Positions 41,096-64,000 of a DNA stretch of 64,000 bases are shown in pieces. The position numbers and the translations under genes are program-made. Where the stretch lies: positions 96,001 to 160,000 of the forward strand of contig CAWCVB010000001.1 of NCBI GenBank assembly GCA_963798915.1, in the 5' to 3' direction. Under the pieces are notes generated by a model. The model saw only the letters and a list, made by a program, of their open reading frames with translations. It was not told the DNA's origin and did not search any database. The DNA comes from an uncultured Gemmatimonadales bacterium. GTDB lineage: Bacteria > Gemmatimonadota > Gemmatimonadetes > Gemmatimonadales > GWC2-71-9. The number at the start of each line of letters is the position of its first letter. The stretch's first letter is position 1.

Positions 41096-41197
41096 GTAGG
41101 GGCGGGTCTCAGACCCGCCCCCCTTCCGGCCCGCCGCCCAATCCGGACACGACAGCACGGGCGAGCCTCATGGATTCCCGCGTTCGCGGGAATGACG
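41096..41197. repeat. GTAG-type REP (41096-41121) and ATTCCC..GGGAATGAC palindrome (41170-41197)
   Basis: gtaggggcgggtctcagacccgccc and tggattcccgcgttcgcgggaatgacg. The second encodes the last residues of the RND gene. Confidence 0.75.
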
Positions 41198-44100
41198 ATG
41201 AAACATGAACTTGGCCGCCGCGCCCGTCCTGACCGTCCTGCCCGCCCAGTTTCCCCTCACCATCGCCGGCACCACGAACATCGCCCCGATCGTGCCAGCG
41301 AGGGTGCCGCCCGCCGTGGCCAGGGCAATGGCGCCGAAGAGACTATCGGCGTCGGTGCCGATGGCAAGCGGCAGCAGACTCGCCAGCGTCGTCAGCGTCA
41401 CCATGATGATCATCCCCGCGCGATCTTCGGCTGCCTGCACCACCTGCGCAACGCTCAGCCCTGCCCGCCCAGTCCGCCCGGCCCGTCTTGTCTCCAGCGC
41501 CGCGTCCACCAGCAGAATTGATTGATTGACCGCGAGTCCCACTACCAGAATGACGCCCACTGCCGCCTCGCGGGTAAAGGCATTGCCCGTGAGCCAGAAT
41601 GCCGCCACCACTCCGCCCAGTGCCAGCGGCAAGCTGAGGAAGATCATGGCCGCCGCCCAGATCGAGTCAAAGACGAGCGCCACTGACAGAATCACCAGGA
41701 CCACACCGATGCCGAAGACCAGCCAGAGTCCCTTGGCGCTGTCATCGGGACTCCAGGCAAATTCGTCGTCGCCCACGGAATAGCCTGGCGGCACGGTAAT
41801 GCTCGCCATGAAGGCCTTGTGAGTGCGTTCCGCGAGCTTGGGCGGCCCCCGGAATTCATAGCTCACGATCCGAAGGTACTGCTGGTCCTCCCGGCTCACC
41901 GTGCCAAGCCCGGTGGCCTCATCCACGGCGGCAAGATCGCGGATGCGGACCGGTGCGTCTGATGGCGAGGGCACGATGGCCTGGCGCAAGTCGTCGAGCG
42001 AGCGCGTCTGGGCGCCGACGCGCTCCACGCTTACGGGCAGCTCCTCGTCGCCGATCTGCAGCTTCATGGCCGTGGGCCCGCCGGCCAGTTCGCGCGCCAC
42101 GGCGCCGGCAAAGTCGCCGGCCGTCACGCCATAGCGAGCCAGCGCCGCGCGATCGGGGTCCAGCACCACACTGACCGTGCGCTCGGAGCGCCAGCTCGCC
42201 GCGTTGATGTCCACGTTCCGGACCCGCGGGATCCGTTCCAGCCGCCCCTTGAGATCGAGTGCCAGCTGCTCCACACCGTCGAACGAGTAGCCCAGCAACT
42301 TGATCCGGTAGCTGGACATCCCACCGCCCCCACTGCCACCGTAATAGCCCGGCCCCTGCGGCGGTTGGACTGAGACCTGGGCCCCACCGATGAGGAGGGC
42401 GCGCTGGGTCAGCTTCTCGTAGAGCTCGTACGGAAGGGGACCGAGTCCTGCCTCGCGTTCAAAAACGACGGTCATCCGGGCGCCGTCCGGCGACCCCTGG
42501 CTCTGGACTTCATCGACGCCGGGCACGCCCACGACGATCGCCTCAAACTCGCGCATGCCGCGGTCCAGACTTTCGGGGTCTGACCCACGTGGAAAGCTGA
42601 GCCCGGCCGAAAGGGTCGTGCGCGCGTCAGGCCCAAAGCTCCAGCTCGACCTCGGCACCTTCTTGATGAAGCCCCACGTGAGCACCCCCACTGCGGCGGC
42701 CGCGAACGACAGGGTGACCCAGCGCCAGCGCACCAGGCCCCCGACCGCCTTTCCATATATATGGCGCAGCCGGGACGACCCTGACCGGTGGATCCCATGG
42801 CCGGCGCCCAGGGCCGGCACCATGATGAGCGCCGAGAGCACTGACCAGGCCAGCGCGAGGGCAAACGCGGCGGCAAAGGGGATGAAGGCCGCCCGTGCGT
42901 TCCCTTGCAGATAAAGAAACGGAAAGAGCACGACCGCCGTGGTGAGCGTGGCGCCCACGACGGCCGGCATGATCCGCCGGCCCGCTTCCGCTCGTCCGTC
43001 CGGCGTGTCCTCCGCGGTCCGCAGCCGTTCCACCACGACCAGGCCGTTGTCCACCAGAATGCCGATGCCCATGCCCAGGCCGGCCAGGGTGAGCAGGTTC
43101 GCAGGAATGTGAAGCAGGTACAGCCCGAGCGAGGTACCGGCGATCGCCACGGCAGCGCTGCCCATCACCAGCGCCACCGACTTGACATTGCGCAGCGCGA
43201 TGCCGAGCACCAGCAGCACGACGCCAAAGGCGATGGCGCCCCGCAGCATCAGCTCATTGAGCTGCCTGGCCAGCTCGACACTTTCGTCGTCCTGCAGCGT
43301 GAGGACCACGCCGGGCGGGAGGAGCCGGGTGACGTTGGCCACCTCCGCCTTGACCCGTGCGGCCGTCTTGATCGCGTCGGCACCGGGAAGGCGCGAGACC
43401 GAGAGCGCCACCGCCGTTTCGCCATTGAGACGATAGAATCGCCCGCGGTTATCCTCCGACGGGCGCACCGTCGCGAGCTCACCGAGTCGAAACACCCCGC
43501 CGCCCGGGCCGACAATGGGCAGCTTCTCGAGGTCGGACAGACTGCCGGGCTCATCGCGCACCACCACCGCGCTCTGGGTGGCACCTTGCTGTTCTTCGCC
43601 CAGCGCCTGCACCACGCGCGCGTTCTGCACCGCTGTCCGGATGGCGACCGGCGAGATCCCCAGCTGGCGCAGTCGCGAGCCATCGTATGACACCGTGACG
43701 CCCGGCGTGGCGCCACCGTAGGAATTGACACCGCTCACGCCCTCGACCGCCTGGAGCCGGGGTTTGGCGATATCGTTGCTGATCTTGAGCAATGCGCCCG
43801 GTGTGTAGGGCCCCGCCATGGTATACCGCAGCAGCGGCTGTTCCTGCAGATCGTCGGGAACGTAGTTCAAGACCTGGGGCGGCGAGACGCCGGGAGGGAA
43901 ATCACCGCGAATCGCTTCCAGGCGTTCGTGAATGGCGAGTCGCGCCATCTGCACGTCCGTTTCCGGCTCCAGCTCCACCGTGATCATGGCGGAGCCCTCG
44001 CTCGATTCGCTGCTGGTCTTCTTGACGCCGCGCACCGGCTGGATCGCTGCCTCGACGGGCGACGTAACGTAGGTCTCCATCAGCTCGGCGGAGACACCGG

Positions 44101-44248
44101 GCCAGCTGGAGGAGATCTGGAGACGTGGCAGCTCGACGGTGGTACGGGTGGCAAGCGGGAGACGGGTGAAGGCCACGCCGCCGGCCAGCAGCAGCGAGAA
44201 CGCGATGGCCCAGATAACGGCCGGGCGGTGCGCGGCCCAGCGAATCAC
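41168..44248 (-). CDS. RND efflux permease (AcrB/MdtBC-like), second subunit
   Basis: GTG start at 44248 overlaps the upstream TGA. Motifs SAELMETYVTSPVE, GILVDNGLVVVE, PLALGG, GG...GT. Confidence 0.92.
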   Translation of the reverse strand: MIRWAAHRPAVIWAIAFSLLLAGGVAFTRLPLATRTTVELPRLQISSSWPGVSAELMETYVTSPVEAAIQPVRGVKKTSSESSEGSAMITVELEPETDVQMARLAIHERLEAIRGDFPPGVSPPQVLNYVPDDLQEQPLLRYTMAGPYTPGALLKISNDIAKPRLQAVEGVSGVNSYGGATPGVTVSYDGSRLRQLGISPVAIRTAVQNARVVQALGEEQQGATQSAVVVRDEPGSLSDLEKLPIVGPGGGVFRLGELATVRPSEDNRGRFYRLNGETAVALSVSRLPGADAIKTAARVKAEVANVTRLLPPGVVLTLQDDESVELARQLNELMLRGAIAFGVVLLVLGIALRNVKSVALVMGSAAVAIAGTSLGLYLLHIPANLLTLAGLGMGIGILVDNGLVVVERLRTAEDTPDGRAEAGRRIMPAVVGATLTTAVVLFPFLYLQGNARAAFIPFAAAFALALAWSVLSALIMVPALGAGHGIHRSGSSRLRHIYGKAVGGLVRWRWVTLSFAAAAVGVLTWGFIKKVPRSSWSFGPDARTTLSAGLSFPRGSDPESLDRGMREFEAIVVGVPGVDEVQSQGSPDGARMTVVFEREAGLGPLPYELYEKLTQRALLIGGAQVSVQPPQGPGYYGGSGGGGMSSYRIKLLGYSFDGVEQLALDLKGRLERIPRVRNVDINAASWRSERTVSVVLDPDRAALARYGVTAGDFAGAVARELAGGPTAMKLQIGDEELPVSVERVGAQTRSLDDLRQAIVPSPSDAPVRIRDLAAVDEATGLGTVSREDQQYLRIVSYEFRGPPKLAERTHKAFMASITVPPGYSVGDDEFAWSPDDSAKGLWLVFGIGVVLVILSVALVFDSIWAAAMIFLSLPLALGGVVAAFWLTGNAFTREAAVGVILVVGLAVNQSILLVDAALETRRAGRTGRAGLSVAQVVQAAEDRAGMIIMVTLTTLASLLPLAIGTDADSLFGAIALATAGGTLAGTIGAMFVVPAMVRGNWAGRTVRTGAAAKFMFHRHSRERGNP

Positions 44249-47200
44249 GTTGCCTCCACCGCCTTGCCCACCGCGGCTGACCGGCGCGCGCGCCGGCGCT
44301 CCCGCCAACGCTCGGTCACGGAGTACGCCGTCGGTAGCAGGAAGAACGTGACCAGCGTCGCCGTCACCGAGCCGCCGATGATGCCGGCGGCAAGGGGCTG
44401 ATAGAGCTCACCACCACTGCCAATGCCGAGCACCAGCGGGAGCACGCCCACCACGGTGGTAAGCGACGTCATGGTGATGGCGCGGAGCCGCTGCATGCCC
44501 CCCGCCAGGATGGCGTCATTGATCGAATACCCCTCGGCGCGGAAGCGGCGGATGGCATCGAGCTTTACCACCGCATCGTTGTCCGCGATACCGATCATCA
44601 CCACCATGCCGATGAGCGAGACGGCGTTGAGACTCTGTCCCGTGATCCAGAGGACAAAGATTCCGCCCGCCGCCGCCAGCGGCACGGTGAGCATCACCAG
44701 CAGCGGCGTGGTGAAGCTGCCGAACTCGCCGGCCAGCACCAGGAAGACCAGCGCCACCGACAGAATGGCGACCACCGTGAGTTCTTTGGTGGTGCGGCGC
44801 TGTTCCACGTCGGCGCCGGTCACCTGCCAGGTGATACCGGAAGGCGGACTGAGGGTCGAGAGCAGTGACTCCACGTCGCTGGACGCCCGTGCTGTGCCGC
44901 CCTGCTCCACCACGCCTTCGACGATATTCACTGGCCGCTGGCCGGAGCGCACCACTTCGACTGGAGCCTGCACCTCCTCCACCTGCACGAGCTGGCCCAC
45001 CGGGACGCCGTTCACCGGCGTGGCCAGGGCGGTCTGGAGGTCCTCGTTGAGCGCGCCGGCAAAGCGCACGCGAATGGGAATGCGGCGGTCGGTGAGCCGC
45101 AGTTCATCGGCGGCAACGCCGCCCAGGCCGCCCGCCAGTGCGTTGACCACCTCCTGCACCGCGATGCCGCGCTGGGCCATGCGGCCGCGCAGCAGGGTCA
45201 CTTCGAGCTGGGGCTGGGTGCTGCTGTAGGCGGCGCGGACGTCGGCCAGGGTGGGCAGCTTCTCCATCAACGTCTGGATGCTGTCGGCCCACCGGTCGGC
45301 ATCCGCCGAATGGGTCGCCGAGACTTCCACCTTGACCAGCCGTCCCTCCCGGCCAATCAGGCTCCCGAACTCCGACTGGCCGGCGAGGTCGAGCGCAAGC
45401 GAGCCCGCTGCGAGATCCGGCACCGCGGCACGCAGCGCATCAGCAAAGTTGCCGGCGTCCTTGCCGTCCGGTACGGGAATGATCAGCTGCGCCGAGGCGG
45501 AGGTGCCGGGATCGGCGCCGGAGAGCACCTCTTCATCGGTGGCCTGGCCGATGCGGGCGTAGATACCGGAGGAGCCAAGCTTTTCCGCGGCATCCACGAT
45601 GCGCCTCGCCTGGCGCATCGTCTCCTCGATGGCGGTCCCCTCGGCGAGCCGCACGTCGGCCACCACGGTGCCTTCGTCCACGCGGGGAAGAATTTCACGC
45701 GGCAGCCGCATGGCCACGAGCGCCGTCACGATCACCAGCCCCAGCGCCATGCCGAACACCGCGCGCGGATGTGCCAGGGACCAGATCATCCCGTGTTCGT
45801 ACCATCGCACGGGGGCGGGCACGCGCGCGGGAGGGGCAAAGGCTAGCCTTTGCCCCTCCCGCGCGCGGCGGCGCGATTTCATCATCATCACCGGCATCAG
45901 CGTGAGGGCCAGCACCAGGGAGGCGGCGAGCGACATCACCACGCTGAGCGAGAGATCGCGGAAGAGCGCCGCGGCGAGCCCGCGCACAAAGACGATCGGC
46001 CCGAACACCAGCAGGGTAGTGAGCGTGCCGGCGATCAGCGGGCCGCTCACTTCCTCGGTGGCGCGGCGGGCGGCCTCCATGGCTGGCACGCCCCGCTCGC
46101 GATATCGCCCGGTGGCCTCGGCCACCACGATCGCATTGTCCACCAGCAGGCCGACACCGAGGGCGAGCCCGCCGAGGGAGAGGATATTGATCGTGACATC
46201 GAGGAGCTGGAGAATCACCAGCGCCACCAGCACCGACAGCGGCACGATCAGCCCGATGGCGAGCGAGGCGCGCCAGTCCTTGAGAAAGAAGAGAATCACC
46301 AGCAGTGAAAGAATCCCGCCGGCGATGATCTCCTGGGAGAGGTTGCCGAGGGCATCGTTGACAAACCGCGCCTGCGCCGCCACCACGTGCATCTTGACGT
46401 CGGGGAATTCTTCTTCCAGCTGACTGATGGATTGATACATCCCGCGGGTCACGGCCACCGTGTTGGAGCCGGCGTCCTTGTAGACCACGAGGCCCACGGC
46501 GGCCTTCCCGTCCAGCAGCGTCTCGGTGCGCGGGTCGGCGGTGGTGAGCGACACCGTGGCGAGGTCGGAGAGCTTGATGCCGGAGCCGGCCGGCCCCACC
46601 GGTGTCTCGCCGATTTCCTGCGGGGTTCGAAACTCCGCAAAGGTGCGCACCGAGAAGCGGAACTGGCCTCGGCGGATAGTGCCGCCCGGTGTGCTCCGGT
46701 TGGCATTTTCAACTGCGGTGGCGATTTCGTCGGGATTGAGGCCCAGCGCCCGCATCCGTTCGGGATCCACCTCGATCCGGATCTCGTCTTCCGGCGCACC
46801 CACTACGGCCACACTGGCCACGCCATCGAGCTGCTCCAGCCGGCGGCTGTGCACGTCACGCGCGGTGTTGGCAATGGAGCGGAGGTCGCCGGGGCCGGTG
46901 AGCGCCAGCACGGCGATGGGGCGTTCCCCCGGATCGCTGGTGAGCAGCGTGGGCCGGTCGGCCCCTTCCGGCAGCGCGCCGCGGGCGTTGTCGAGCCGCT
47001 CGCGCACGGTGAGCACCGTGCCCGCCATGTCGGTGCCCCAGGCAAAGCGTGCGGTGGTGGTCACCTCCCCGTTCCGGCTCACACTGCGGAGGTCCACCAG
47101 TCCTGGTGTCGCCGCGATGGCCTGTTCGATCGGCTCGGCGACGAGGCGGGATACTTCGGTCGCGGCGGCACCGGAGTAGGCAGTGCGGATGGTAAGCACC

Positions 47201-47328
47201 GGCAGGGTCACGTCGGGGAGCAGCGATACCGGCAGCCGGCCGATCGAGATGATGCCAAGCAGCACCACCGCGATGGTGGCGGCAATGGTACTGACCGGGC
47301 GGCGCAGTGCGGCGGAGGCGAGGGACAA
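44245..47328 (-). CDS. RND efflux permease (AcrB/MdtBC-like), first subunit
   Basis: Motifs RRPV, LPVSLLPD, GLLVDNAIVVAE, RLRAITMTSLTT, PLAAGIIGG. Confidence 0.93.
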   Translation of the reverse strand: MSLASAALRRPVSTIAATIAVVLLGIISIGRLPVSLLPDVTLPVLTIRTAYSGAAATEVSRLVAEPIEQAIAATPGLVDLRSVSRNGEVTTTARFAWGTDMAGTVLTVRERLDNARGALPEGADRPTLLTSDPGERPIAVLALTGPGDLRSIANTARDVHSRRLEQLDGVASVAVVGAPEDEIRIEVDPERMRALGLNPDEIATAVENANRSTPGGTIRRGQFRFSVRTFAEFRTPQEIGETPVGPAGSGIKLSDLATVSLTTADPRTETLLDGKAAVGLVVYKDAGSNTVAVTRGMYQSISQLEEEFPDVKMHVVAAQARFVNDALGNLSQEIIAGGILSLLVILFFLKDWRASLAIGLIVPLSVLVALVILQLLDVTINILSLGGLALGVGLLVDNAIVVAEATGRYRERGVPAMEAARRATEEVSGPLIAGTLTTLLVFGPIVFVRGLAAALFRDLSLSVVMSLAASLVLALTLMPVMMMKSRRRAREGQRLAFAPPARVPAPVRWYEHGMIWSLAHPRAVFGMALGLVIVTALVAMRLPREILPRVDEGTVVADVRLAEGTAIEETMRQARRIVDAAEKLGSSGIYARIGQATDEEVLSGADPGTSASAQLIIPVPDGKDAGNFADALRAAVPDLAAGSLALDLAGQSEFGSLIGREGRLVKVEVSATHSADADRWADSIQTLMEKLPTLADVRAAYSSTQPQLEVTLLRGRMAQRGIAVQEVVNALAGGLGGVAADELRLTDRRIPIRVRFAGALNEDLQTALATPVNGVPVGQLVQVEEVQAPVEVVRSGQRPVNIVEGVVEQGGTARASSDVESLLSTLSPPSGITWQVTGADVEQRRTTKELTVVAILSVALVFLVLAGEFGSFTTPLLVMLTVPLAAAGGIFVLWITGQSLNAVSLIGMVVMIGIADNDAVVKLDAIRRFRAEGYSINDAILAGGMQRLRAITMTSLTTVVGVLPLVLGIGSGGELYQPLAAGIIGGSVTATLVTFFLLPTAYSVTERWRERRRARRSAAVGKAVEAT

Positions 47329-47357: not shown

Positions 47358-47490
47358 CGGTCGTCGGTCTTCAGTCGTCGGTCGTCAGCATGTGGCATCC
47401 CTACTGGATTCCTCGCTGCGCTCGGAATGACACATAGAAGAATCGACGCCTGACGATCGACGACTGACGACAGACGACCGAAGACTCGCG
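47358..47490. repeat. Nested repeat: inverted heptamer tracts around a half REP-like element
   Basis: ggtcgtcggtcttcagtcgtcggtcgtc, then gattcctcgctgcgctcggaatgaca, then gacgatcgacgactgacgacagacgacc. Confidence 0.8.
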
Positions 47491-47506: not shown

Positions 47507-48622
47507 CTAATCCTTCGCCTCCTCCACATCCCGCCGCATCTCCACCTTCACCGGTGCATCATGCGTGAGCGTGAGATGGCCCGAGATGAGCACCGTGTCG
47601 CCGGGCGCCACCGGAATCTCGTTGCTGGCGGAATCCGGCAGGATGACCGTCTCCATGCCGTTGGATCGGCCGGGATTCACATAGGTCCACTTGGCCCGGC
47701 CTTCTTTCACCACGAAGACCAGCGGGCGCCCATCGCGCTCGAGCACGGCGGACGCCGGGACAATGATCTCGTTGGGCAGCCGGCTGCTCTCCAGCCGCAC
47801 GTCGGCGTACATGCCGGGGCGGAGCGGACCGGGGTTGGGGAGACTCACGATCACCTTGCCGGCGCGGGTGGTGCTGTCCACCAGCGGGAGCACGGCGGCG
47901 ATGCGGCCTTCGATGACGCGATCAGGAACTGCCGCCGTCGTGATGCGGGCCCGGCCACCTTGTTTGACCAGCGGGAGATCGTGTTCCAACACACTGGCTT
48001 CGAGCCGCATGCTGGCGAGACTCACCACGGTGGCGAGTTCGTCGCCAGCGGAGACCCGGGTGCCGGCTGCCACCGGCACGGCGTCAATCACGCCGCTGAA
48101 TGGGGCGGTGACGACGGCGCGGTCGCGGTCCAGCTTGGCCTTTTCGAGCTGGACCCGGGCGGCGGCGAGGCCGGAACGCGCCAGCGCATTCTGGCGGCGC
48201 TCCTTGGTCGGCGCCTGTCCTGAGACAATCGAGTCGGGGACGATGTTGTCGGTGTACTGCACCTGGGCCTGCGCCACCGCCGCCTCGGCCGACTGCACGT
48301 CCAGATCGAACGGGCGCGGATCGTACCGCACCAGTGTCTGGCCCTTGGACACGTGCTGGCCCGACTTCACCAGCACATCGGCGATGGTGCCCGGCACCTC
48401 GGCGCGGAGCCTGGCCACGTCGGCGCGGACCTGGCCATTGGTCGCGACGGTGAGGACCAGGTCGCCCTTCCGGACCACATCCCCCACCACCGGGAGCGAG
48501 AGGGTGCTGGCGCTGCGGGTGGCGGTGGAATCCGCCGTCGGACCGTCGGCCGCGCCCTTCTTGCAGGCGGACAGCGGCAGCAGCAGCGCGGCGGAGAGGG
48601 GGAGCAGGTCCCGCAGGGTCAT
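47507..48622 (-). CDS. RND periplasmic adaptor (membrane fusion) lipoprotein
   Basis: Lipobox LSAC. Motifs G.HVSKGQ.L, APFSGVI, LRPGMY, VPASAV. Confidence 0.92.
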   Translation of the reverse strand: MTLRDLLPLSAALLLPLSACKKGAADGPTADSTATRSASTLSLPVVGDVVRKGDLVLTVATNGQVRADVARLRAEVPGTIADVLVKSGQHVSKGQTLVRYDPRPFDLDVQSAEAAVAQAQVQYTDNIVPDSIVSGQAPTKERRQNALARSGLAAARVQLEKAKLDRDRAVVTAPFSGVIDAVPVAAGTRVSAGDELATVVSLASMRLEASVLEHDLPLVKQGGRARITTAAVPDRVIEGRIAAVLPLVDSTTRAGKVIVSLPNPGPLRPGMYADVRLESSRLPNEIIVPASAVLERDGRPLVFVVKEGRAKWTYVNPGRSNGMETVILPDSASNEIPVAPGDTVLISGHLTLTHDAPVKVEMRRDVEEAKD

Positions 48623-48713: not shown

Positions 48714-48860
48714 TGTCATTCCCGCGAACTTCCCGCTTTCGCGGGAATGACGGGGAATCCATGAGGGCTCACCCCAGGTGAGTCGCCCCGCCCGCAATGG
48801 TCGCGGGTCACTCGACCCGAGACCCGAGACCCGAGACCCGAGACCCGAGACCCGAGACCC
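48714..48860. repeat. TGTCATTCCC..GGGAATGAC palindrome plus (GACCCGA)n heptamer tract
   Basis: tgtcattcccgcgaacttcccgctttcgcgggaatgacggggaatcc, and about 6.5 GACCCGA copies at 48814-48860. Confidence 0.82.
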
Positions 48861-48933
48861 CAAAAAGATGCGCCCAAGGCCTCAATGGTTGCTCAACGGG
48901 TGGCTCCGAGATACAGGGCACAATGGGACGCCA

Positions 48934-49650
48934 TCAGAAGCCTGTCAACTCTGGTTGACCCGCCCCCCCCCCGACGCCCCCCCGAGGGAAGCGCGCTTCG
49001 AGTCGGAGCGCCGCCTCCACCCGCCACTCCCAGCCGACGCGGTGGCTGAACTCGTGGAGGGATACATCCAGACAGGTGCGGACGCGATGCCGCAGAGTTC
49101 GCACATCCATGTCATAGCGCCCGGCCAATCCTTCCGCCGATTCATGCGCGGCCGTTTTTATTTTCGCGAGCTGAATCACCCATTCCCAGTGCCGGGGACT
49201 GAAGTGATTGCCCTGGCTGAAACGGCGACGCACTGAGCGGCGAGACAGCTCATTGCGTCCCTCCGCCACGAGTAGCCGAAGATGGGCCGCCAGCTTTTCC
49301 TGACCCGGGCGAGAGTCCACATAACGAAGCACTTCGGTAGCCGTCGGAGGCCGGCGGTTGCGGATGGCCGAGAGAGGACTCATGCCTGGTTTCAGAAAGA
49401 CGGGCACGCCGGGCAGCGACGAGACGGCGTCATACAGCTTGTCCAGATCCACTCTGGGGGTGTCGTCGGGCTGTTTCACAACGAGGCTGCACCAAGGAGC
49501 GGAGCCACGGACACCGAGCAGCGCCTGAATGCTCGCATGATCTGACCTGAACGGCCACAGTAGGATCGAGCCCAAGGGAGGGTCGGCGTGCCACGGCGAT
49601 TCGTCTAAGTAAGGCGGGACCAATAGCTTGCAGGCGAACAACGGGGGCAT
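48934..49650 (-). CDS. Putative transcriptional regulator with C-terminal AraC-like double HTH
   Basis: SRRSVRRRF...SPRHW...SAEGLAGRYDMDVRTLRHRVRTCLDVS pattern. Divergent from the propeller cluster. Confidence 0.55.
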   Translation of the reverse strand: MPPLFACKLLVPPYLDESPWHADPPLGSILLWPFRSDHASIQALLGVRGSAPWCSLVVKQPDDTPRVDLDKLYDAVSSLPGVPVFLKPGMSPLSAIRNRRPPTATEVLRYVDSRPGQEKLAAHLRLLVAEGRNELSRRSVRRRFSQGNHFSPRHWEWVIQLAKIKTAAHESAEGLAGRYDMDVRTLRHRVRTCLDVSLHEFSHRVGWEWRVEAALRLEARFPRGGVGGGAGQPELTGF

Positions 49651-51980: not shown

Positions 51981-52226
51981 ATGTCAAATCACGTTTCAAG
52001 CGTGCTTTACCCAGTGCTGGCTACCGCGGTGTTTGTCGTTGCGGCCGCGCTCGGGTCAAGCCGGGCCGCTCAGGCAGCCGAGCAGACGGACTTCTGCCCT
52101 GGCGCAGATTACTGTTACACGGCCGGTGGATGCTCTGCATGCAAGAATACCGCGTGCATCACCGGCGGTAACTGCCCTGATCCAGGCACCCAAGGAAGCA
52201 ACTGTTACGTGTGTGCTGCTCCCTAA
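51981..52226 (+). CDS. Small secreted 8-cysteine peptide
   Basis: Strong RBS AGAAGGAGGTGA. Predicted 32-aa Sec signal ending AQA. 49-aa mature region with C-x5-C-x5-C-x2-C-x4-C-x5-C-x9-C-x2-C. Confidence 0.85.
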   Translation: MSNHVSSVLYPVLATAVFVVAAALGSSRAAQAAEQTDFCPGADYCYTAGGCSACKNTACITGGNCPDPGTQGSNCYVCAAP

Positions 52227-55819: not shown

Positions 55820-57030
55820 CGGGCAAGGCGGACAAAGCGGGCAGGACGGGCTGGTTGCTCCTTCTCCTTCTGCTTTTGGTTGCCTGCAGTGAGGAGTCAC
55901 CGGCTGCGCGGACGCGGGTGTTCGACAGCGCTGGCATCACCATCGTCGAGAACAGTGACGCAGCCGAGCCAGCCATTGCCTCAAGGCTGGTAGAATCCCA
56001 CCCCATTCTGCGTATAGGCCAGGAAGACGGACCTGAGGCGTATCGCTTCGATGGCGTGCGAGATATCGCTCGGCTCTCTGACAGCACCATCGTCGTGGCC
56101 GACCGATCCGGCTCGATTCGCTTCTTCGACAAGCGCGGTCAGTTTCTTCGTGCTGTCGGCCGTCACGGTGAGGGGCCCGGCGAATATCGCGTCATCAACT
56201 TCATGCGACGCATTCGGAGCGATTCGCTGCTGGTCTGGGATTTCCCCGCCCGGCGCATCACGATACTCGCGCCTGACGGAACTCTTCAGCGCAGCGAGCC
56301 CGGTCCGGTGACGGAGGGGTTCTTCTATGGCTTGGACGCGTTCGCCGAAGGATCGCTCCTGGGCTCCTATGATGGTCCGCTCACTGGCGCCAGACCTGCG
56401 AATGGCATTCTCCGCACGACTTCGGCCGTGGTCCGGTTCTCGCCCTCGTCAGGCACGATGGATACGCTGGCACTGATCACCATCGGCAGCTCGTATGTGT
56501 CGGGAGGCGAACACTTCAGGATCTCCAGTATGCCCTACCCAGCCGAGGCCATGGCGATCGCGGCCGGACGCTCCGCGTATGTTGGAAGCAGCGAGCGTTT
56601 CGAAATCGCCTTCCGCAATGAGAACGGCCAATTGGTGCGTCTGATCCGCCTCGACCGTGCGCCTGCGGCAATCGATGACTCCACTCGCGAGCGCTACATC
56701 GCCGACCAGCTCTTGCACGCCCGCACTGAGGCCGGTCGGGAGCGGCTGAAGGCACTCTACGCCGAGTTGCCGTTCCCCAAGACCCTGCCCGCGTTTGGCG
56801 CGCTGGCGGTGGATGCTGATTCCAACCTCTGGGTGAGCGCCTACGCGCTCACGGACACGCTCCCGACGCGCTGGACCATCTTCGACCCGGCCGGCCGCAT
56901 CCTCGCCGAAGCCCGGACGCCGGCGCGGTTCAAGGTCTTCGCCATTGCCCGCGAAGATATCATCGGCGTGCGCTCGGACAGCGTGGGGACTGAGCAGGTG
57001 CAGGTGCTGCGGTTGCGGAAAGTCCAATGA
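55816..57030 (+). CDS. 6-bladed beta-propeller lipoprotein (copy 5)
   Basis: GTG start overlapping the upstream TGA. Lipobox LVAC, DSAGITIVEN, GRHGEGPGEY, VDADSNLWV, WTIFDPAG. Confidence 0.88.
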   Translation: MTGKADKAGRTGWLLLLLLLLVACSEESPAARTRVFDSAGITIVENSDAAEPAIASRLVESHPILRIGQEDGPEAYRFDGVRDIARLSDSTIVVADRSGSIRFFDKRGQFLRAVGRHGEGPGEYRVINFMRRIRSDSLLVWDFPARRITILAPDGTLQRSEPGPVTEGFFYGLDAFAEGSLLGSYDGPLTGARPANGILRTTSAVVRFSPSSGTMDTLALITIGSSYVSGGEHFRISSMPYPAEAMAIAAGRSAYVGSSERFEIAFRNENGQLVRLIRLDRAPAAIDDSTRERYIADQLLHARTEAGRERLKALYAELPFPKTLPAFGALAVDADSNLWVSAYALTDTLPTRWTIFDPAGRILAEARTPARFKVFAIAREDIIGVRSDSVGTEQVQVLRLRKVQ

Positions 57031-57266: not shown

Positions 57267-57854
57267 ATGGGTATGCCTGATACAGCTGGACGCGAGACGC
57301 GGGACGCGAGACGCTGGACCCGGGACGCGGTGCTCGCGCTCCCCGACGATGGCCGTCGCTACGAACTCATTGACGGTCAGCTGGTCGTGACGTCGGCGCC
57401 CTCCGGCGGCCACCAGGTGGCCGTCACCACCCTGCTGCTGCGCATCGGGCCTGTCCTGAAGCAGGCAGCCGACACCAGCGCCCGCATCCTGGTGTCCCCG
57501 GCGGACATCAGCCTGGGTGAGGAGGAAATTCTCCAGCCCGACCTGTTCATCTATCTGGCCGAAACCGGGCGACAGCTCACTGAATGGAGCGACATTTCAT
57601 CGCTCCTGGTCGCCATCGAGATCCTGTCGCCTTCGACGGCGCGGTACGACAGAGGACTCAAGCGACTGCGCTACCAGCGCGCGCTCGTGCCGGAATACTG
57701 GATCGTGGATCTGGACGGAAGACTGGTGGAGCGCTGGCGACCGGACGACACGCGGCCGGAGGTGTTGCGCGAGCGATTGCTCTGGGCGTCGGGTGACGGA
57801 GCCGAAGTGGATCTAGACCTGCGGGAATTCTTCAGGGAAGTGGCGGGAACATGA
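57267..57854 (+). CDS. Uma2 (DUF820) family PD-(D/E)XK endonuclease, copy 1
   Basis: Motifs YELIDG.LVV..P...HQ, QPD, EILSPST...D...K...Y, VPEYWIVD. Confidence 0.92.
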   Translation: MGMPDTAGRETRDARRWTRDAVLALPDDGRRYELIDGQLVVTSAPSGGHQVAVTTLLLRIGPVLKQAADTSARILVSPADISLGEEEILQPDLFIYLAETGRQLTEWSDISSLLVAIEILSPSTARYDRGLKRLRYQRALVPEYWIVDLDGRLVERWRPDDTRPEVLRERLLWASGDGAEVDLDLREFFREVAGT

Positions 57855-58101
57855 AGGGCAGACGGACAGGGCGCATCTGACGTAGCACATCATTGCGAGG
57901 AGGCGCCGACGGCGCCGACGAAGCAATGACGAATTGGCAAGCTGTCGCCGCAGGCGACGCCTGCCGAGCCACGGTCATCAGCCGCGGGAAACCCGGCACC
58001 AATCCGCCACCGGCCGCGTTTCCTCGATGACAGCGAGCAGTGCGGCGCTGGCGATCCTGAGGCATGCCCCCTTGCCAACTCCCGCCGCCGAGCCGAGCCT
58101 T
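57855..58101. repeat. 247-bp inter-Uma2 spacer containing a TCATTGC...GCAATGA REP-like palindrome
   Basis: Nearly identical to 58690-58936. Palindrome at ~57890-57930. Confidence 0.9.
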
Positions 58102-58689
58102 ATGGGTATGCCTGATACAGCTGGACGCGAGACGCGGGACGCGAGACGCTGGACCCGGGACGCGGTGCTCGCGCTCCCCGACGATGGCCGTCGCTACGAG
58201 CTTATTGACGGCGAACTGGTGGTGACGCCGGCGCCCGCTTGGCGGCACCAGGGAGCTGTCACCACGTTATGCGCCGTCCTGAAGCAGGCCTTGGATCGCG
58301 CTCCGGGCACCGTTGCGCGATTGCTGGTCTCCCCGGCGGACATCCAACTTGGTGAAGAAGAGATCCTTCAGCCGGATCTGTTCGTCTACACGATCGCGTC
58401 CGGACCGCGGGCGGAGGATTGGGGTGATATTTCGGGGCTCCTGCTCGTGATTGAAGTCCTCTCGCCCTCCACCGCGCGCTACGACCGGGGCCTGAAGCGG
58501 CTGCGATACCAGCGGGCCCGGGTGCCCGAATACTGGATCGTGGATCTCGACGGCCGCGTCGTGGAACGCTGGCGCCCGGATGATGCGCGGCCGGAGGTAC
58601 TGGCTGATCGGCTGCAGTGGTCGTCGGGCGATGGGGCTGAGGTGAACCTGGATCTGGAGGCGTTCTTCAGGGAAGTGGCGGGAACATGA
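58102..58689 (+). CDS. Uma2 family endonuclease, copy 2
   Basis: Same motifs. Start is exactly 835 bp after copy 1. Confidence 0.92.
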   Translation: MGMPDTAGRETRDARRWTRDAVLALPDDGRRYELIDGELVVTPAPAWRHQGAVTTLCAVLKQALDRAPGTVARLLVSPADIQLGEEEILQPDLFVYTIASGPRAEDWGDISGLLLVIEVLSPSTARYDRGLKRLRYQRARVPEYWIVDLDGRVVERWRPDDARPEVLADRLQWSSGDGAEVNLDLEAFFREVAGT

Positions 58690-58936
58690 AGGGCGGGCGG
58701 ACTAGGCGCATCTGACGTAGCACGTCATTGCGAGGAGGCGCCGACGGCGCCGACGAAGCAATGACGAATTGGCAAGCTGTCGCCGCAGGCGACGCCTGCC
58801 GAGCCACGGTCATCAGCCGCGGGAAACCCGGCACCAATCCGCCACCGGCCGCGTTTTCTCGATGACAGCGAGCAGTGCGGCGCTGGCGATCCTGAGGCAT
58901 GCCCCCTTGCCAACTCCCGCTGCCGAGCCGAGCCTT
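58690..58936. repeat. Second inter-Uma2 spacer with a CGTCATTGC...GCAATGACG palindrome (58723-58766)
   Basis: Direct comparison with 57855-58101. Confidence 0.9.
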
Positions 58937-59521
58937 ATGGGTATGCCTGATACAGCTGGACGCGAGACGCGGGACGCGAGACGCTGGACCCGGGACGCGG
59001 TGCTCGCGCTCCCCGACGACGGCCGGCGCCGCGAACTTATTGACGGCGAACTGGTCGTGACGCCGTCGCCGTCCGATTCCCATCAGCGTGCTGTTGGGGA
59101 GCTGTATTTCCTGCTTCGGCTGGCGCTATCGCGAACCCCGGAAACTGCGGCGAGCCTTCTCTTCTCCCCAGCCGATATCAGCCTCGGCGAGGATGAAATC
59201 CTTCAGCCGGACCTCTTCATCTACCGAACCGCCAGCGGACGGATTCGGGAATGGAGCGACATAGCTTCGCTCCTGGTCGCCATCGAGATTCTCTCCCCCT
59301 CCACCGCGCGCTACGATCGCGGCCTCAAGCGGCTGCGCTACCAGCGGGCCCGGGTGCCCGAATACTGGATCGTGGATCTCGACGGCCGCGTCGTGGAACG
59401 CTGGCGCCCGGATGATGCGCGGCCGGAGGTACTGGCTGATCGGCTGCAGTGGTCGTCGGGCGATGGGGCTGAGGTGAACCTGGATCTGGAGGCGTTCTTC
59501 AGGGAAGTGGCGGGAGAGTAG
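58937..59521 (+). CDS. Uma2 family endonuclease, copy 3
   Basis: Same motifs. Start is 835 bp after copy 2. Confidence 0.92.
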   Translation: MGMPDTAGRETRDARRWTRDAVLALPDDGRRRELIDGELVVTPSPSDSHQRAVGELYFLLRLALSRTPETAASLLFSPADISLGEDEILQPDLFIYRTASGRIREWSDIASLLVAIEILSPSTARYDRGLKRLRYQRARVPEYWIVDLDGRVVERWRPDDARPEVLADRLQWSSGDGAEVNLDLEAFFREVAGE

Positions 59522-59680
59522 GACAGACGGACGGCTGGACGGCTGGACGGCTGGACGGGCCGAAGCTGACCTGGAGCTCCGGCCCTTCGCTCGCGGTGCT
59601 CGCTCAGAGTGACATATCTCGCGACGCCTCGACGCCTCGACCTGCGACCGCCTAGCCGCCTAGCCGCCTAGCCGCCTAGC
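59521..59680. repeat. 8-mer tracts (GACGGCTG)n and (CGCCTAGC)n around a half REP-like element
   Basis: ccggcccttcgctcgcggtgctcgct...gtgaca is the reverse complement of the core at ~15296-15320. Confidence 0.75.
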
Positions 59681-60742
59681 AAACCTCTCCAGCACCCGAA
59701 ACCCGTCCTCATCCTCGCCCACCGTATAGACCCACTTCGCAGTCACCGCCACGACTTGGCGATCACCCGGCACGACGACGGTCCGGGTTGACGGGCCCGA
59801 CAGGGGGAACAGCTCGAAACGCGAGACACTATCCCCCGCCTCGGTGCTGAGCTTCGCCCAGACTTCGCCGTCAGGTGCCGCCACGGCACCGTTCTGGAAC
59901 GGCCCCTTCGTGTCCGCCATCGGTCTGTAGATCGTGTCGCCCGGCGCTATGAATCGGCCGGTCAGCATCTGACGATCAGCCTCCGTTGCCTTGATCGGCA
60001 TCCACGCCCTCGGCGCGCCGGAAGTCCATGCACCTTCGGGGCTCCGCCGGTCCACCCGGTTCTGCTGGCCACGCAGGATCCAGATCGAGCCGTCCGGCAG
60101 CACGCCCCACTGATCCTGACTCTCGTACAACCGCCGCATCCGGCTCATGCCACCACCCTTGAGCCGAAGCACTTCCCAGCCGATGTCGTGGAGGCGCGCT
60201 ACCGTGTCCCGTCCGCTCTCGGGCGGATGCATCCGGTAAATCCACGTGGAGTCCTTGGGGCTGGTAGAATCAATCTCCTGACCCACCATCGTGAAGCCGG
60301 CGCTGGGCAGCTGTTCAGCGTAGAGATTGCCGAGCGTGTCCACGCGAAGTTCGAAGGAAACGATGTCGAGGATCGAGACCGCGGTGTCGAGAGTGCCGTC
60401 GGGATTCCAGAAGGTGATCCGGTGCTGCATGGGGTCGAGGACGCCGGGGTGGCCATGCCGCACCAGGCCAAGTGTCGGATTCCGATATTCGCCCGGCCCG
60501 TCCCCGTTGCGGCCGAGGGAATCCACCGTGCCGTCGTCAAGGTTGGCGAGGAGCACCGGGCCATCGTATTGAGGAATGACGATCCGGCCATCGGGCAGTT
60601 CGGCGATGGCACCGAAGTACCCAAGCTGGCCCAGCGTGGCGGAGGGCGAGCCGAGGCGGAGCACGTTCGCAGCGCCGGGAACATCCCTGGAGGCGCAACC
60701 AGCAACCAGTGCAAGCAGAGTCAGCATCCGAGCTTTCAGCAT
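59660..60742 (-). CDS. 6-bladed beta-propeller lipoprotein (copy 6)
   Basis: Lipobox VAGC, GRNGDGPGEYRNP, C-terminal DEDGFRVLERF. Confidence 0.85.
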   Translation of the reverse strand: MLKARMLTLLALVAGCASRDVPGAANVLRLGSPSATLGQLGYFGAIAELPDGRIVIPQYDGPVLLANLDDGTVDSLGRNGDGPGEYRNPTLGLVRHGHPGVLDPMQHRITFWNPDGTLDTAVSILDIVSFELRVDTLGNLYAEQLPSAGFTMVGQEIDSTSPKDSTWIYRMHPPESGRDTVARLHDIGWEVLRLKGGGMSRMRRLYESQDQWGVLPDGSIWILRGQQNRVDRRSPEGAWTSGAPRAWMPIKATEADRQMLTGRFIAPGDTIYRPMADTKGPFQNGAVAAPDGEVWAKLSTEAGDSVSRFELFPLSGPSTRTVVVPGDRQVVAVTAKWVYTVGEDEDGFRVLERFARRLGG

Positions 60743-60949: not shown

Positions 60950-62065
60950 TTACTGTACCACCTCGTACACCACAATCTTCTGCAGCCCTTCCTCATCCGC
61001 CTGCACCTCGTACAGCCGCCCATTGCGGATTACATATGGCACGTCAAGATCCCGATCGGGTGCTGGCATGGCGGCGATCTGCCGGCCAGCGGTGTCGTAC
61101 ACCGCAAGCATCATGGTGCCGTGCTGCATGCCTTCCACCCATGCTCTGCCGTGATCGTCAAATTCGACGGCGTTGAGCAACCAGACGGTCTCGGGCTTCC
61201 GGAGGCTCCCAGCATCGCAGTCCGCTCCCGCCCAATCCTTACGCCACTTCTGGTAATCGGCGAGATCCTGCGCCCACATCGAATCGGTCAGGGGAATCGG
61301 CGCCTGATCATAGGTGATGACGTGCACCGTCTGGCTATCGTCGCGCGTGAAGGTCAGCCGATACTGATCGGTGCGCCAGGTGACCAGATCACCATCAGGA
61401 GAGACCGCGGTCCGAAACTGAGGCGCATATCGGCTTGACTCAAACCCGATGCCTCGATCGCTCCGGCAGGTCAAGGTGAACGACTGGCCGATGTCATTCT
61501 CCGGTATGATGATGGTATCAGGGGCGACGCCGAGGCCAGCACGGATGAGGGACGCGTGGATGCGATCATCGCCCGTCACCTTCTGGTACGATGGCCGGAA
61601 GAACGCACTGGGCCCCGATTGATGGAGCCGGATATCGCCGCCGCTGATTCGCAGACTTGGCTCCGAGGCAACCCAGTTGCCCATACGGTCCACGAATTCC
61701 ACTCGCCCATTCTCGGGGTCATACACCGCCAGCGTATCACCAGCCCACGCCAGCGAGTAGCGATTGTTGAACTCGCCCGGTCCCGACCCCGCGCGTCCGA
61801 GTACCCGAAGCGGCTGACCTGCTGCATCGAAGACGTGGATTCCGCCCGCTCCATAGCCAGCGACGTAGACATTCCCATCACGATCGGCGGCGATGGACCG
61901 GACGGCCGCCGTCATCCCAGCCGCCTCGGGATCGATCATCGCCACGCGCCGGAGATTCCAGTGCGCCACGTCCGGATTACTGGCGCTACGGCTCGCCTCG
62001 CCATTGCAGCCCGCAGCAAGCGAGATCAGGATTGCCGTGCCGAACTTCCACCAACTCAAAGTCAT
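60950..62065 (-). CDS. 6-bladed beta-propeller lipoprotein (copy 7)
   Basis: AGGAG RBS, lipobox AAGC, GRAGSGPGEF, DEEGLQKIVVYEV. Confidence 0.85.
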   Translation of the reverse strand: MTLSWWKFGTAILISLAAGCNGEASRSASNPDVAHWNLRRVAMIDPEAAGMTAAVRSIAADRDGNVYVAGYGAGGIHVFDAAGQPLRVLGRAGSGPGEFNNRYSLAWAGDTLAVYDPENGRVEFVDRMGNWVASEPSLRISGGDIRLHQSGPSAFFRPSYQKVTGDDRIHASLIRAGLGVAPDTIIIPENDIGQSFTLTCRSDRGIGFESSRYAPQFRTAVSPDGDLVTWRTDQYRLTFTRDDSQTVHVITYDQAPIPLTDSMWAQDLADYQKWRKDWAGADCDAGSLRKPETVWLLNAVEFDDHGRAWVEGMQHGTMMLAVYDTAGRQIAAMPAPDRDLDVPYVIRNGRLYEVQADEEGLQKIVVYEVVQ

Positions 62066-62265: not shown

Positions 62266-62270
62266 CGGCG

Positions 62271-63449
62271 CTATTTCTTCACCAGCCGATACACCACGAA
62301 CGACGCGAGGCCGTCGCTGTCCGCCTCCCGGACCAGCACACGATCAGTACCCCGCCAGAGCACGTGCGCCGAGGAAGGCCATGGCGCGCGCACCGTCCCC
62401 TGCCAGATGCCTTCAGGCCTGAACACATCGTAGAATGATGCGGACGTGTCGGCGGATGCGGTCCGCACCCAGATACGGCCCGTGGCATCCAGATCCAGCG
62501 CCTGCATCGGCGGGCGCTCGGTGGGCATGTCATAGAGGTGGAAGTTGGCCTGGATCACGTCCGCCGGCAGGAATCGCGAGATCACCTCGGTGAGCTTGCC
62601 GAACCGCGCCGTGCGTTCTGATTCCGGTACCTTGATCGGCGCCCATGACCGGGTGAAAACCCGGGTCGTATCCGTGCCGTTGGTTTGGAGCGCAAGCGCA
62701 TAAATCGCCGACCATCCGCGCAGCAGCGCGCCCGATCCGGTGACTGTCACGAGATCCGCGGGGCCGCCGGGGATGCCGTAGGTCGCCCGACCGTTCGGTC
62801 GCTCCACCACCCACACTGCTGGCGCATGGCTTTGCTGCAACCAGAGGGTGTCAAGCAGAGTGCCCGTCGTGTCGTAGCGGAGCAGGGTCACCGCATGCTG
62901 GGGAGTCTCTGGTGCGGAAATGCGAAGGTAGAGCCGCGACTTGTCGTCCACTGAGATCGCGCCGGGCCCGTAGAAGCTCCCGTCGGTGACAAAACTGCTG
63001 ATGAACGAGCCGGCAGTATCGAAGATGCTGAGCCGCCTGAGCCGCGGGTCCTGCACATAGAGCCGGGCGCCACGGATCGCCAGAAGCGGCGAGCGATATT
63101 CGCCCGGCCCCGCGCCGTCGCGCCCGATGGTGCGTAGGTATGTGCCGGCGGAATCGAACACCTTGATGCGGGTGGGACTGTCATCCACGACGTAGGCGCG
63201 CCCGGCAGCATCCATCACCGCCGAGAAGACGGGATTGACCAATACCGTGGCGCCACTGTCGCCGGTCGGGAGGCGAGTCAGCTCTTCGAAGCGCCAGCCA
63301 CTGGAATCGGTCCAGCCGGAGGGCGTTAGGTTGTGGACGGCGACGATGCCGCCGGGGAGGGTATCAATGAGACTGGTCGCGAGACGCGAGTCGCGGGTGG
63401 TGCAGCCGGCGAGCAACGCCAGCAGGGCCAGCTTCGTCAGGCGCGGCAC
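62271..63449 (-). CDS. 6-bladed beta-propeller lipoprotein (copy 8)
   Basis: GGAG RBS + GTG start, lipobox LAGC, DTLPGG, GRDGAGPGEYRSP, DATGRIWV, YDVF.PEG. Confidence 0.87.
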   Translation of the reverse strand: MPRLTKLALLALLAGCTTRDSRLATSLIDTLPGGIVAVHNLTPSGWTDSSGWRFEELTRLPTGDSGATVLVNPVFSAVMDAAGRAYVVDDSPTRIKVFDSAGTYLRTIGRDGAGPGEYRSPLLAIRGARLYVQDPRLRRLSIFDTAGSFISSFVTDGSFYGPGAISVDDKSRLYLRISAPETPQHAVTLLRYDTTGTLLDTLWLQQSHAPAVWVVERPNGRATYGIPGGPADLVTVTGSGALLRGWSAIYALALQTNGTDTTRVFTRSWAPIKVPESERTARFGKLTEVISRFLPADVIQANFHLYDMPTERPPMQALDLDATGRIWVRTASADTSASFYDVFRPEGIWQGTVRAPWPSSAHVLWRGTDRVLVREADSDGLASFVVYRLVKK

Positions 63450-63518
63450 GTCTGAACTCCCGGGATCATGGAATCGACCGCGGAGACGCAGAGGGCGCGG
63501 AGGCGGCAAGCACGCTCA

Positions 63519-64000
63519 TCAATCCTGCTCGCCCTGCCCGCCTTGCCCGTCCTGCCCGTCCTGTATCACCCATCGCCGTACCTCCGGAAATCCAGTCTCG
63601 TCGGTGGTCGAGAGGTACAGGGTGCCGCCGCTGACAAGCAGCGGATCATATGGCGAGAGCTCGGCCGGCAGGTCCACGGCGCCCAGGTAGCGACCGGCCG
63701 GGCCGAACACGGCGAAGGTCGTATGACCGCCCTGGCTCAGACCCTGGGCCCAGGTGTTCCCGGCATCGTCAGTCATCAGCCGCAAGAAGCTCGGCTCGGT
63801 GGTCGGAACGTCGGCCATGTGAAAGGCATTCCGCAACGTGACCTCGTCGGCCTGGCCACCCTTGATCCGCTCGATCATCTGCTCCACGCGGGCGGTCCGG
63901 ACGCTGTCCGGAAGGGCACCTGGTGTCCAGGTCCGCCGCATGATCAACGTGGTATCATGCCCGGCGCCGGAGCGCATGATGGCGAACTCGGTGCTGGCAC
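63519..64000 (-). CDS. C-terminal part of a further 6-bladed beta-propeller protein (copy 9, partial)
   Basis: DDAGNTWA...VFGPAGRYLG.V.LP...DETGFPEVRRW matches the C-termini of copies 5-8. Frame is open to the window end. Confidence 0.8.
   Translation of the reverse strand, partial: ASTEFAIMRSGAGHDTTLIMRRTWTPGALPDSVRTARVEQMIERIKGGQADEVTLRNAFHMADVPTTEPSFLRLMTDDAGNTWAQGLSQGGHTTFAVFGPAGRYLGAVDLPAELSPYDPLLVSGGTLYLSTTDETGFPEVRRWVIQDGQDGQGGQGEQD

Follow-up and report, generated by a model that had tools for sequence, protein, structure and literature searches.

Exchangeable cassettes of cysteine-rich peptides, propeller lipoproteins and redoxins beside a two-permease RND pump in Gemmatimonadota

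Introduction

Unmodified disulfide-bonded bacteriocins are encoded in cassettes that also contain a thiol-disulfide accessory protein, as in pediocin PA-1, sublancin (BdbA/BdbB) and the class IIa microcins, and disulfide-rich mini-proteins are otherwise regarded as eukaryotic. According to database annotations, loci of Bacteroidota pair small NVEALA proteins (PF14055) with six-bladed propellers of the family DUF5128 (PF17170); these propellers number in the thousands, and we know of no paper on the family. A literature search, which did not cover subscription journals and supplements, returned no paper naming NVEALA or DUF5128 and none describing the system treated here. This system lies at positions 41,168 to 64,000 of a stretch of 64,000 nucleotides (the window) from an uncultured Gemmatimonadales bacterium (GenBank assembly GCA_963798915.1, contig CAWCVB010000001.1, positions 96,001 to 160,000), and it includes a secreted-type peptide precursor with eight cysteines (8-Cys), a CxxC redoxin, nine propeller genes, a regulator-like gene and a pump of the resistance-nodulation-division (RND) type.

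In the mau clusters, the genes of methylamine dehydrogenase (MADH) are laid out as a propeller large subunit, a disulfide-rich small subunit, MauD and MauE. The resemblance to the present locus consists of a propeller, a small disulfide-rich exported protein and a thioredoxin-like maturation factor (excerpt of bioRxiv 10.64898/2026.03.05.709764), whereas here the propellers are six-bladed and of NHL type, the predicted mature peptides of 45-55 aa have no conserved Trp, MauE is missing from the locus and many unrelated peptide families are found. Among RND pumps, MdtABC is described as containing two MdtB and one MdtC, with MdtC binding the substrate and MdtB linked to proton translocation, and CusF as handing metal to CusBA (excerpt of PMC4462101). 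The pump of the window is like MdtABC in having two adjacent permeases and one membrane fusion protein (MFP), one permease mostly without the proton-relay residues, and plausibly a borrowed outer-membrane channel; unlike it, the pump scores far below the MdtB/MdtC cut-offs and belongs to a separate subfamily tied to propeller arrays.

The likeness to the disulfide bacteriocin cassettes extends to a small secreted disulfide peptide, a dedicated thioredoxin-fold gene, an exporter and a cognate partner gene, all varying between relatives. The differences are a Sec-type leader in place of the double-glycine leader with its peptidase-ABC transporter, a propeller partner of 350-400 aa, a heteromeric RND pump and non-cationic peptides. 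In the Bacteroidota loci, too, PF17170 propeller lipoproteins adjoin a small exported protein with Cys residues, but these loci are a precedent at database level only, without a described function, and PF14055 did not match the 8-Cys peptide, the other peptides scanned or anything else in the source genome (85% complete), so membership in NVEALA was rejected. What is new is the combination of parts; should the peptides turn out to act as bacteriocins or pheromones, a known function would have been assembled in a new way. The window adds an exchangeable slot, a second module, the co-segregation of peptide, propeller and redoxin, and a controlled link between pump and propellers. Tentatively, and with a little less than an even chance of being right, we read the locus as part of a polymorphic disulfide-peptide system in which cognate propellers bind the peptides and feed the pump, in the service of kin signalling or target-specific antagonism.

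Results and Discussion

The 8-Cys cassette

The cassette consists of three plus-strand genes and probably a fourth: propeller 1 (50075..51139), an NHL-like six-bladed lipoprotein scoring over the PF17170 cut-off; the CSTC protein (51156..51689), a membrane-anchored TlpA/ResA-like redoxin with an SPT cis-Pro motif; the 81-aa peptide precursor (51981..52226); and, as the probable fourth, propeller 2 (52310..53350), another lipoprotein. Their G+C contents at third codon positions (GC3) are 0.58, 0.61, 0.61 and 0.76, respectively; those of the first three stand against 0.81 ± 0.04 in the 1828 called genes of the reference set, which had been filtered by codon score. Every open reading frame (ORF) listed in an earlier interpretation of this DNA, made from the letters alone (the sequence-only reading), was found in the claimed order and on the claimed strand. 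The secreted-type peptide described there has exactly eight cysteines, a hydrophobic leader ending in A-Q-A and a strong AGGAGG site. Its statement that no modification enzyme for ribosomally synthesized and post-translationally modified peptides (RiPPs) is present was also correct, no radical SAM, YcaO, MNIO, lanthionine or other tailoring enzyme being detected among the ORFs scanned in the window and just beyond it. The peptide has no double-glycine leader, and no ABC exporter was found among the 19 ORFs scanned.

With the predicted cleavage, the mature peptide would have about 49 aa, a net charge of -2 and neither Trp nor His. Searched with a profile, 1.84 billion representatives yielded 23 matches at E<=0.001, 20 of them short, and the eight cysteines and a C-P-D-P-G motif are kept in 20/20 sequences of the family alignment. 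The mature parts in this family are neutral to acidic, and Trp and His are mostly missing (at most 1-2 Trp in relatives). To judge from this conservation, the 81-aa ORF is a genuine gene of a conserved, uncatalogued family, which was present in 2 of the 401 genomes of the phylum. A word-based protein search with the peptide was empty, a PDB sequence search gave no match, and a metagenome scan with the family alignment yielded only four spurious short matches. The structure model of the peptide had a mean predicted local distance difference test (pLDDT) of 56 and was not used; ESM Atlas matches for one homologue reached only 0.77.

The thioredoxin fold attributed to the CSTC protein was recovered. 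An N-terminal anchor, the CxxC motif and the cis-Pro loop accompany this fold, and the comparison with the ESM Atlas gave 0.96 to TlpA/Redoxin clusters, with 178 shared features. No Pfam or NCBIfam family matched, the best PDB sequence match was a thioredoxin oxidoreductase at E 0.46, and the word-based protein search returned the self-match only.

In a genome of another family, G185, two 8-Cys peptides are followed by an orthologue of propeller 1, an orthologue of the redoxin (29% identical, E 2e-18) and a second propeller. Propeller 1 and the G185 propeller beside these peptides are reciprocal best matches (37%, 97 bits versus 47-51 for the next). Propeller 2, weakly similar to the second G185 propeller (24% over 234 aa) and without an orthologue in the corresponding slot of the congener G004, probably belongs to the 8-Cys cassette. 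A third orthologue of propeller 1 (P0031, 40%) and the family peptide P0004 probably share a contig. Viral contigs contained no relative of propeller 1.

The exchangeable slot

The 8-Cys cassette is an exchangeable insert of low GC3, placed in inverted orientation between the pump and a second module. G004, whose MFP shares 87% identity, retains the regulator, the MFP, the permease and propeller 3, but its slot between the MFP and propeller 3 contains an insertion sequence, Uma2 and a 6-Cys peptide accompanied by a propeller and a redoxin of its own. This cassette matches one on contig C4 of the source genome (41% and 38%). The slot carries no insert in G003 and G007, where the minus-strand array runs into the MFP. 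Since the slot contents differ among congeners, the slot is exchangeable and propellers 3-5 form its stable flank. All three are on the plus strand: propeller 3 (53443..54543) is 58% identical in G004 and 68% in G002, beside differing slot contents, while propellers 4 (54614..55819) and 5 (55816..57030, over the PF17170 cut-off) have orthologues of 72% and 57%, respectively, in G004. The single module of 23 kb proposed in the sequence-only reading was therefore abandoned: the 8-Cys cassette is an exchangeable insert, propellers 3-5 are a conserved flank and propellers 6-9 belong to a second operon.

Three tandem Uma2 genes follow propeller 5 (57267..59521, plus strand; PF05685, 835-bp repeat unit), and Uma2 genes also occur inside the slots of G004 and G002. 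They were rejected as a part of the system and are considered passengers.

The second module

The remaining propellers of the window are on the minus strand. Propeller 6 (59660..60742), the last gene of the array, has a 46% orthologue in an MFP-adjacent array at locus L113; upstream of it are propellers 7 (60950..62065, a profile match) and 8 (62271..63449, PF17170 3.7e-9) and the 3' end of propeller 9 (63519..64000), where the array runs on past the window. The continuation (G000:C1:161025-164125, minus strand) encodes propeller 10, two 4-Cys peptides, a CFSC redoxin and propeller 11; the redoxin and the two peptides, which are unannotated (G000:C1:162101-162936, minus strand), are situated 2.1-2.9 kb past the window end. 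The operon thus reads propeller 11, CFSC redoxin, two 4-Cys secreted peptides, propeller 10 and then propellers 9 to 6, on the same strand as the MFP and permeases. The peptides carry the motif W-R/K-D-x2-G-x-C-x3-C-x5/6-C-P-C.

This second module was present in 7/10 genomes of the genus, the source genome counted; in G007 the contig stops before the redoxin. In G003 the 4-Cys module runs on one strand straight into the MFP-RND genes. It is the older neighbour of the pump, and propellers 6-9 belong to it; their interpretation as orphans of the 8-Cys peptide was rejected, their operon having a redoxin and two peptides of its own. In comparisons with four close congeners, the nonsynonymous divergence (dN) of the 4-Cys peptides was 0.33-0.60 and that of the redoxin and MFP 0.07-0.12, with synonymous divergence (dS) of 0.5-1.2. 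The peptides therefore change 3-5 times faster than the redoxin and MFP at similar dS. Propeller 11 appears split over two frames near its C-terminus (G000:C1:162979-164257, minus strand), by a frameshift or an assembly error, and the congener copies look whole.

Co-segregation of peptide, propeller and redoxin

The source genome contains four peptide-propeller-redoxin cassettes in total. Besides the two at this locus, one has two 6-Cys peptides and a divergent regulator (G000:C4:29729-32974) and another has one 4-Cys peptide and a one-Cys redoxin-like ORF (C5:501998-505282), both in stretches of lower GC. The genome has 25 small ORFs that are candidates for Cys-rich secreted peptides; 6 of these were found within 0.5 kb of a propeller, when 1.8% of the genome is <=1 kb from one (p 4e-6, or 7e-4 if counted as 4/23 loci).

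A survey was carried out on 144 loci plus the source genome, covering 236 propellers and 51 candidate peptides, 3 of which were dropped as mis-calls; the loci had been picked by pump, regulator or peptide and are not a random sample. A propeller was located within 1.5 kb of 41/48 peptides, and a same-strand CxxC/SxxC redoxin-like ORF, defined by a pattern rule, within 2.5 kb of 27/48. The best foreign match was itself peptide-linked for 19/45 peptide-linked propellers versus 17/191 unlinked ones (p 5e-7, the kin among them not being independent). The best peptide match and the best propeller match fell in the same genome for 11/31 cassettes, compared with a mean of 1.8 and a maximum of 7 in 2000 shuffles; in this test the 8-Cys cassette of the window was scored as a miss, propeller 3 falling inside the linking distance. 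Three cassettes of the source genome each have a foreign counterpart that matches in all three parts, peptide, propeller and redoxin (8-Cys with G185, 4-Cys with G003 and 6-Cys with G004). As these three coexist in one genome, kinship alone does not explain the triple matches. The co-occurrence across Gemmatimonadota that had been predicted was therefore found for propeller, redoxin and peptide; for the RND pair it held with propellers (18/20 loci) and only modestly with peptides (6/20). None of 35 peptides had a credible match in an NCBIfam scan, and Pfam was likewise blind to the peptide families. Two longer precursors beside propellers (L068:9219-9836 and L120:8326-8631) join a Cys-rich N-terminal part to a C-terminal extension.

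The composition of these peptides bears on an alternative of metal or redox buffering, by which a TlpA/ResA-type reductase would keep thiol-rich chelator peptides of the periplasm in the reduced state and the pump would export a metal-peptide complex. Proteins of the TlpA/ResA type usually reduce periplasmic thiols, and the redoxin resembles their clusters; the peptides are acidic and Cys-rich, and another cassette of the genome is 4 kb from a heavy-metal-type RND operon. Nevertheless, the Cys count was even in 44/48 surveyed peptides, the Cys spacings are fixed and family-specific with few His, the permeases score higher to RND_permease_2 than to CusA/CzcA, and chelation requires neither cassette exchange nor cognate propellers. 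We consider this explanation very improbable. Killing by cationic, defensin-like peptides was rejected, the peptides being neutral to acidic.

Propeller fold and family

The source genome has 24 propeller ORFs of >700 nt, and this cluster accounts for 11. At the DUF5128 (PF17170) cut-off of 22.9 bits, propellers 1, 5, 8 and 9 pass, 2, 3 and 10 remain below, and 4, 6, 7 and 11 have no match; a profile made from eight of the window's propellers matches all nine. Propellers 1-10 have lipoprotein-type leaders; when aligned locally with one another, they are only about 23-37% alike. For propeller 1, the model (pLDDT 74) gave Brat NHL as top match (Z 25.2, root-mean-square deviation (rmsd) 3.0, 260 aligned) and places this protein closest to the six-bladed NHL propellers. 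Across 32 aligned propellers, the only conserved features are one Asp, one Trp and the blade motif G-x-GPGE. The prediction of a complex between propeller 1 (residues 38-353) and the mature peptide scored 0.09, against a mark of 0.32, in a run without folded controls.

The co-segregation data are also compatible with a periplasmic two-part protein, in which the peptide would be a small disulfide-rich subunit or substrate of the propeller, matured by the redoxin and retained in the envelope after the pattern of MADH, or the propeller would be a tailoring enzyme like the amidating lyase PAL. PAL, an NHL-fold enzyme, is among the top fold matches of propeller 1 (Z 22.5, rmsd 3.4, 269 aligned), no TolC gene is present at the locus, and propeller 10 has diverged less than its peptides. 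However, PAL-type NHL enzymes depend on metal-binding His together with catalytic Tyr/Arg, and no catalytic column and no conserved His were found in the 32 aligned propellers, nor any His among the invariant columns of the three propeller-1 orthologues, so PAL catalysis was rejected. The 8-Cys mature peptides are mostly without Trp, which excludes a cofactor of the tryptophan tryptophylquinone (TTQ) type with its two conserved Trp, and there is no MauE gene at the locus; a MADH/TTQ enzyme was rejected, the mature peptide having no Trp and MauE-like matches being located only on another contig. Moreover, 191/236 propellers have no linked peptide, and many unrelated peptide folds share one layout. 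A two-part protein was accordingly judged improbable.

The RND pump and its loci

The pump genes are on the minus strand, as in the sequence-only reading, and their assignment as two RND permeases and an MFP was confirmed by two ACR_tran matches and TIGR01730, respectively. Permease B (41168..44248, start GTG at 44248; PF00873 5e-132), the second subunit of a heteromeric pair, overlaps by 4 bp with permease A (44245..47328; PF00873 1.5e-207), and the MFP (47507..48622) is a lipoprotein above the TIGR01730 cut-off. The locus therefore has the permease(s) and MFP expected of a tripartite RND pump. The best NCBIfam match of permease A was RND_permease_2, far below cut-off, and both permeases scored 199-371 bits against the MdtB/MdtC equivalogs, whose cut-offs are 1584-1774, which places them outside these families.

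The roles of residues in transmembrane helices 4 and 10 (TM4 and TM10) were taken from AcrB. In a motif census of orthologue rows that were not de-duplicated, the TM4 Asp of permease A was present in 75/75 rows. Permease B orthologues showed V-Q/H/K at the two TM4 positions in 95/95 rows, with no Asp, and the window copy reads VDN, with the Asp kept. The TM10 Lys was missing in all permease B orthologues, the column being N/H-Q/H. A match to permease B at E<=1e-140 was found in 148/401 phylum genomes, about 80 of them at >=55% identity. The closest permease relatives, in the best 80 loci of the genome-contig scan, were all from Gemmatimonadota and mostly from Gemmatimonadales, and a plasmid scan gave no permease-B match at 1e-50 and permease-A matches of <=30% identity.

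The link of the pump to propellers is firm, and its link to peptides is modest. Propellers were found upstream of the orthologous RND pair in 18/20 close-clade loci, selected for long contigs and different genera, and within 5 kb of the MFP in 50/57 close loci of a larger, partly redundant set. At distant-clade pump loci the figures were 11/20 for upstream propellers and 1/20 for a peptide. As a control, other RND genes of five near-complete genomes were near a propeller in 0/40 cases within 6 kb and 2/40 within 10 kb; these genomes had been drawn from those with known propellers beside the focal pump, which leaves the control count as the only informative one. The filter used for peptides had a background of 17 matches in 3.29 Mb, from which about 1 would be expected in 20 upstream stretches, compared with the 6 loci seen, i.e., an enrichment of about six-fold.

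These counts also suit an alternative in which pump and peptide cassettes are separate: the pump would serve propeller lipoproteins or small ligands bound by them, or ordinary efflux, and cassettes would gather here because the arrays are sites of recombination and insertion. The difference between the propeller link (18/20, or 50/57 within 5 kb) and the peptide link (6/20) favours it, and so do the Uma2 genes and insertion sequences gathered in the slot, the location of 2/4 cassettes of the genome elsewhere and the alien GC3 of the 8-Cys cassette (0.58-0.61 versus 0.81 ± 0.04). On the other hand, the 4-Cys module is vertically kept in 7/10 genus genomes and in G003 is co-strand into the MFP-RND genes, and peptides are enriched about six times at the pump. 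On balance, a separate pump was considered rather unlikely.

Several observations concern the arrangement of propellers around such pumps. One genome of the family (G194) has about 58 propeller genes, 8 of them within 25 kb of the RND pair, and the corresponding numbers were 8/8 in G094 and 8/10 in G223. At three distant-clade loci (L048, L087 and L089) the two permease genes are separated by a propeller gene.

Proposed mechanism

For the polymorphic peptide system favoured here, the following working order is suggested. Each cassette would encode 1-3 Sec-exported Cys-rich peptides, whose disulfides would be set by the periplasm-facing thioredoxin-fold protein of the same cassette, and the cognate NHL-like propeller lipoprotein would bind the folded peptide. 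Cassettes would be swapped between species, in many cases together with a divergent regulator, and enter the propeller arrays beside this heteromeric RND/MFP subfamily. Propellers would then most likely capture periplasmic peptides and pass them to the pump, comparable to the metal hand-off from CusF to CusBA. The cell would in this way release its own peptide and clear or sense foreign ones, with unpaired propellers widening the range. The more specific proposal of a new route by which diderm bacteria release and clear folded mini-proteins, with Sec export, oxidative folding particular to each cassette, binding to the cognate NHL propeller lipoprotein, hand-off to the heteromeric RND pump and a borrowed outer-membrane channel, is doubtful.

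A number of results weigh against the proposed system. A folded peptide of 5 kDa is far larger than known RND substrates. No outer-membrane factor gene (TolC/OEP) was found at the pump locus, the nearest OEP gene on the contig being about 105 kb off; the genome has 13 OEP genes elsewhere, and most of its other RND operons carry a TolC gene. TolC was within 2.5 kb at 16/57 close-clade loci and missing from 41/57, a deficit relative to the distant loci (19/22 with). A Cys-rich secreted peptide was detected at the RND pair in 6/20 close-clade loci and in none of the remaining 14/20. In G185 the 8-Cys cassette and the RND homologue are on different contigs, and the cassettes of G238 and G250 are also on contigs other than those of the permease homologues. 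The slot of G002 contains two propellers and Uma2 but no regulator or peptide. Over all cassette pairs, peptide similarity and propeller similarity were hardly correlated (Spearman 0.08, p 0.10). The net charge was <= +1 in 41/48 surveyed peptides (neutral to acidic), which speaks against membrane-lytic killing. Finally, the cognate propeller 10 had a dN of 0.13-0.16, more conserved than its peptides, and this conservation fits a generic binder or an enzyme as well as a specific receptor.

Regardless of mechanism, Gemmatimonadota, a widespread phylum of soil and water, possess many unrelated families of disulfide-rich peptides, and each family is co-inherited with a propeller and a redoxin that match it. 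Such cassettes lack the tailoring enzymes sought by cluster-mining tools; their peptides are invisible to Pfam and NCBIfam and are a possible source of new constrained peptide scaffolds. Should the release and clearing route outlined above prove real, its cargo would be a large library of disulfide-rich peptides, with dozens of unrelated Cys patterns in 24 genomes, that pass from species to species in the manner of pherotypes or toxin-immunity pairs. DUF5128 propellers, those of gut Bacteroidota included, would then gain a first function.

The regulator and neighbouring genes

The regulator-like gene (48934..49650, minus strand) is divergent from the 8-Cys cassette and belongs to an uncatalogued family with an invariant GWEW motif. 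The sequence-only reading had called it AraC-like. The support for an AraC-type region with two helix-turn-helix (HTH) motifs is weak, the family profile matching the AdpA DNA-binding domain at E 0.013 with an alignment that covers both, and HTH_18 (PF12833) remaining below cut-off (E 0.0067, 17.1 bits versus 33.6). The GWEW family was present in 38/251 family genomes, and the source genome has two copies, each divergent from a peptide cassette. Among 20 regulator loci, a propeller was <=1.3 kb away in 7, a peptide <=2.5 kb away in 9 (one doubtful) and neither in 10; the regulator was therefore rejected as an obligate part, and its sequence surroundings suggest that it is an optional regulator of exported-peptide loci. 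A promoter scan gave results at chance level.

At one of the 10 loci with neither (L216:6180-9938; G011:C79) the GWEW regulator is divergent from a lasso-peptide-type cluster with PqqD, Transglut_core3, an asparagine-synthase-like gene and a short precursor. At two others (L227:6870-9334 and L231:4305-6228) a regulator and a Cys-rich peptide occur without a propeller and adjoin large exported proteins with carboxypeptidase-regulatory-like domains.

Downstream of the pump, a Cbp1-family lipoprotein gene (40033-40920, minus strand; NF052320 above cut-off) comes directly after permease B and is kept in G008 and absent in G003. Two tandem genes for secreted M14 zinc carboxypeptidases (36165-39658, minus strand) lie downstream of the pump, with synteny in G008 only. 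Neither the Cbp1-like nor the M14 peptidase genes were retained as parts of the system.

Short repeats with units of 7-8 bp, tandem or inverted, were found in three intergenic gaps: at 47358-47501, where a 31-bp inverted repeat pair is situated between MFP and permease A; at 48814..48862, a 7-bp tandem repeat between regulator and MFP; and at 59648-59679.

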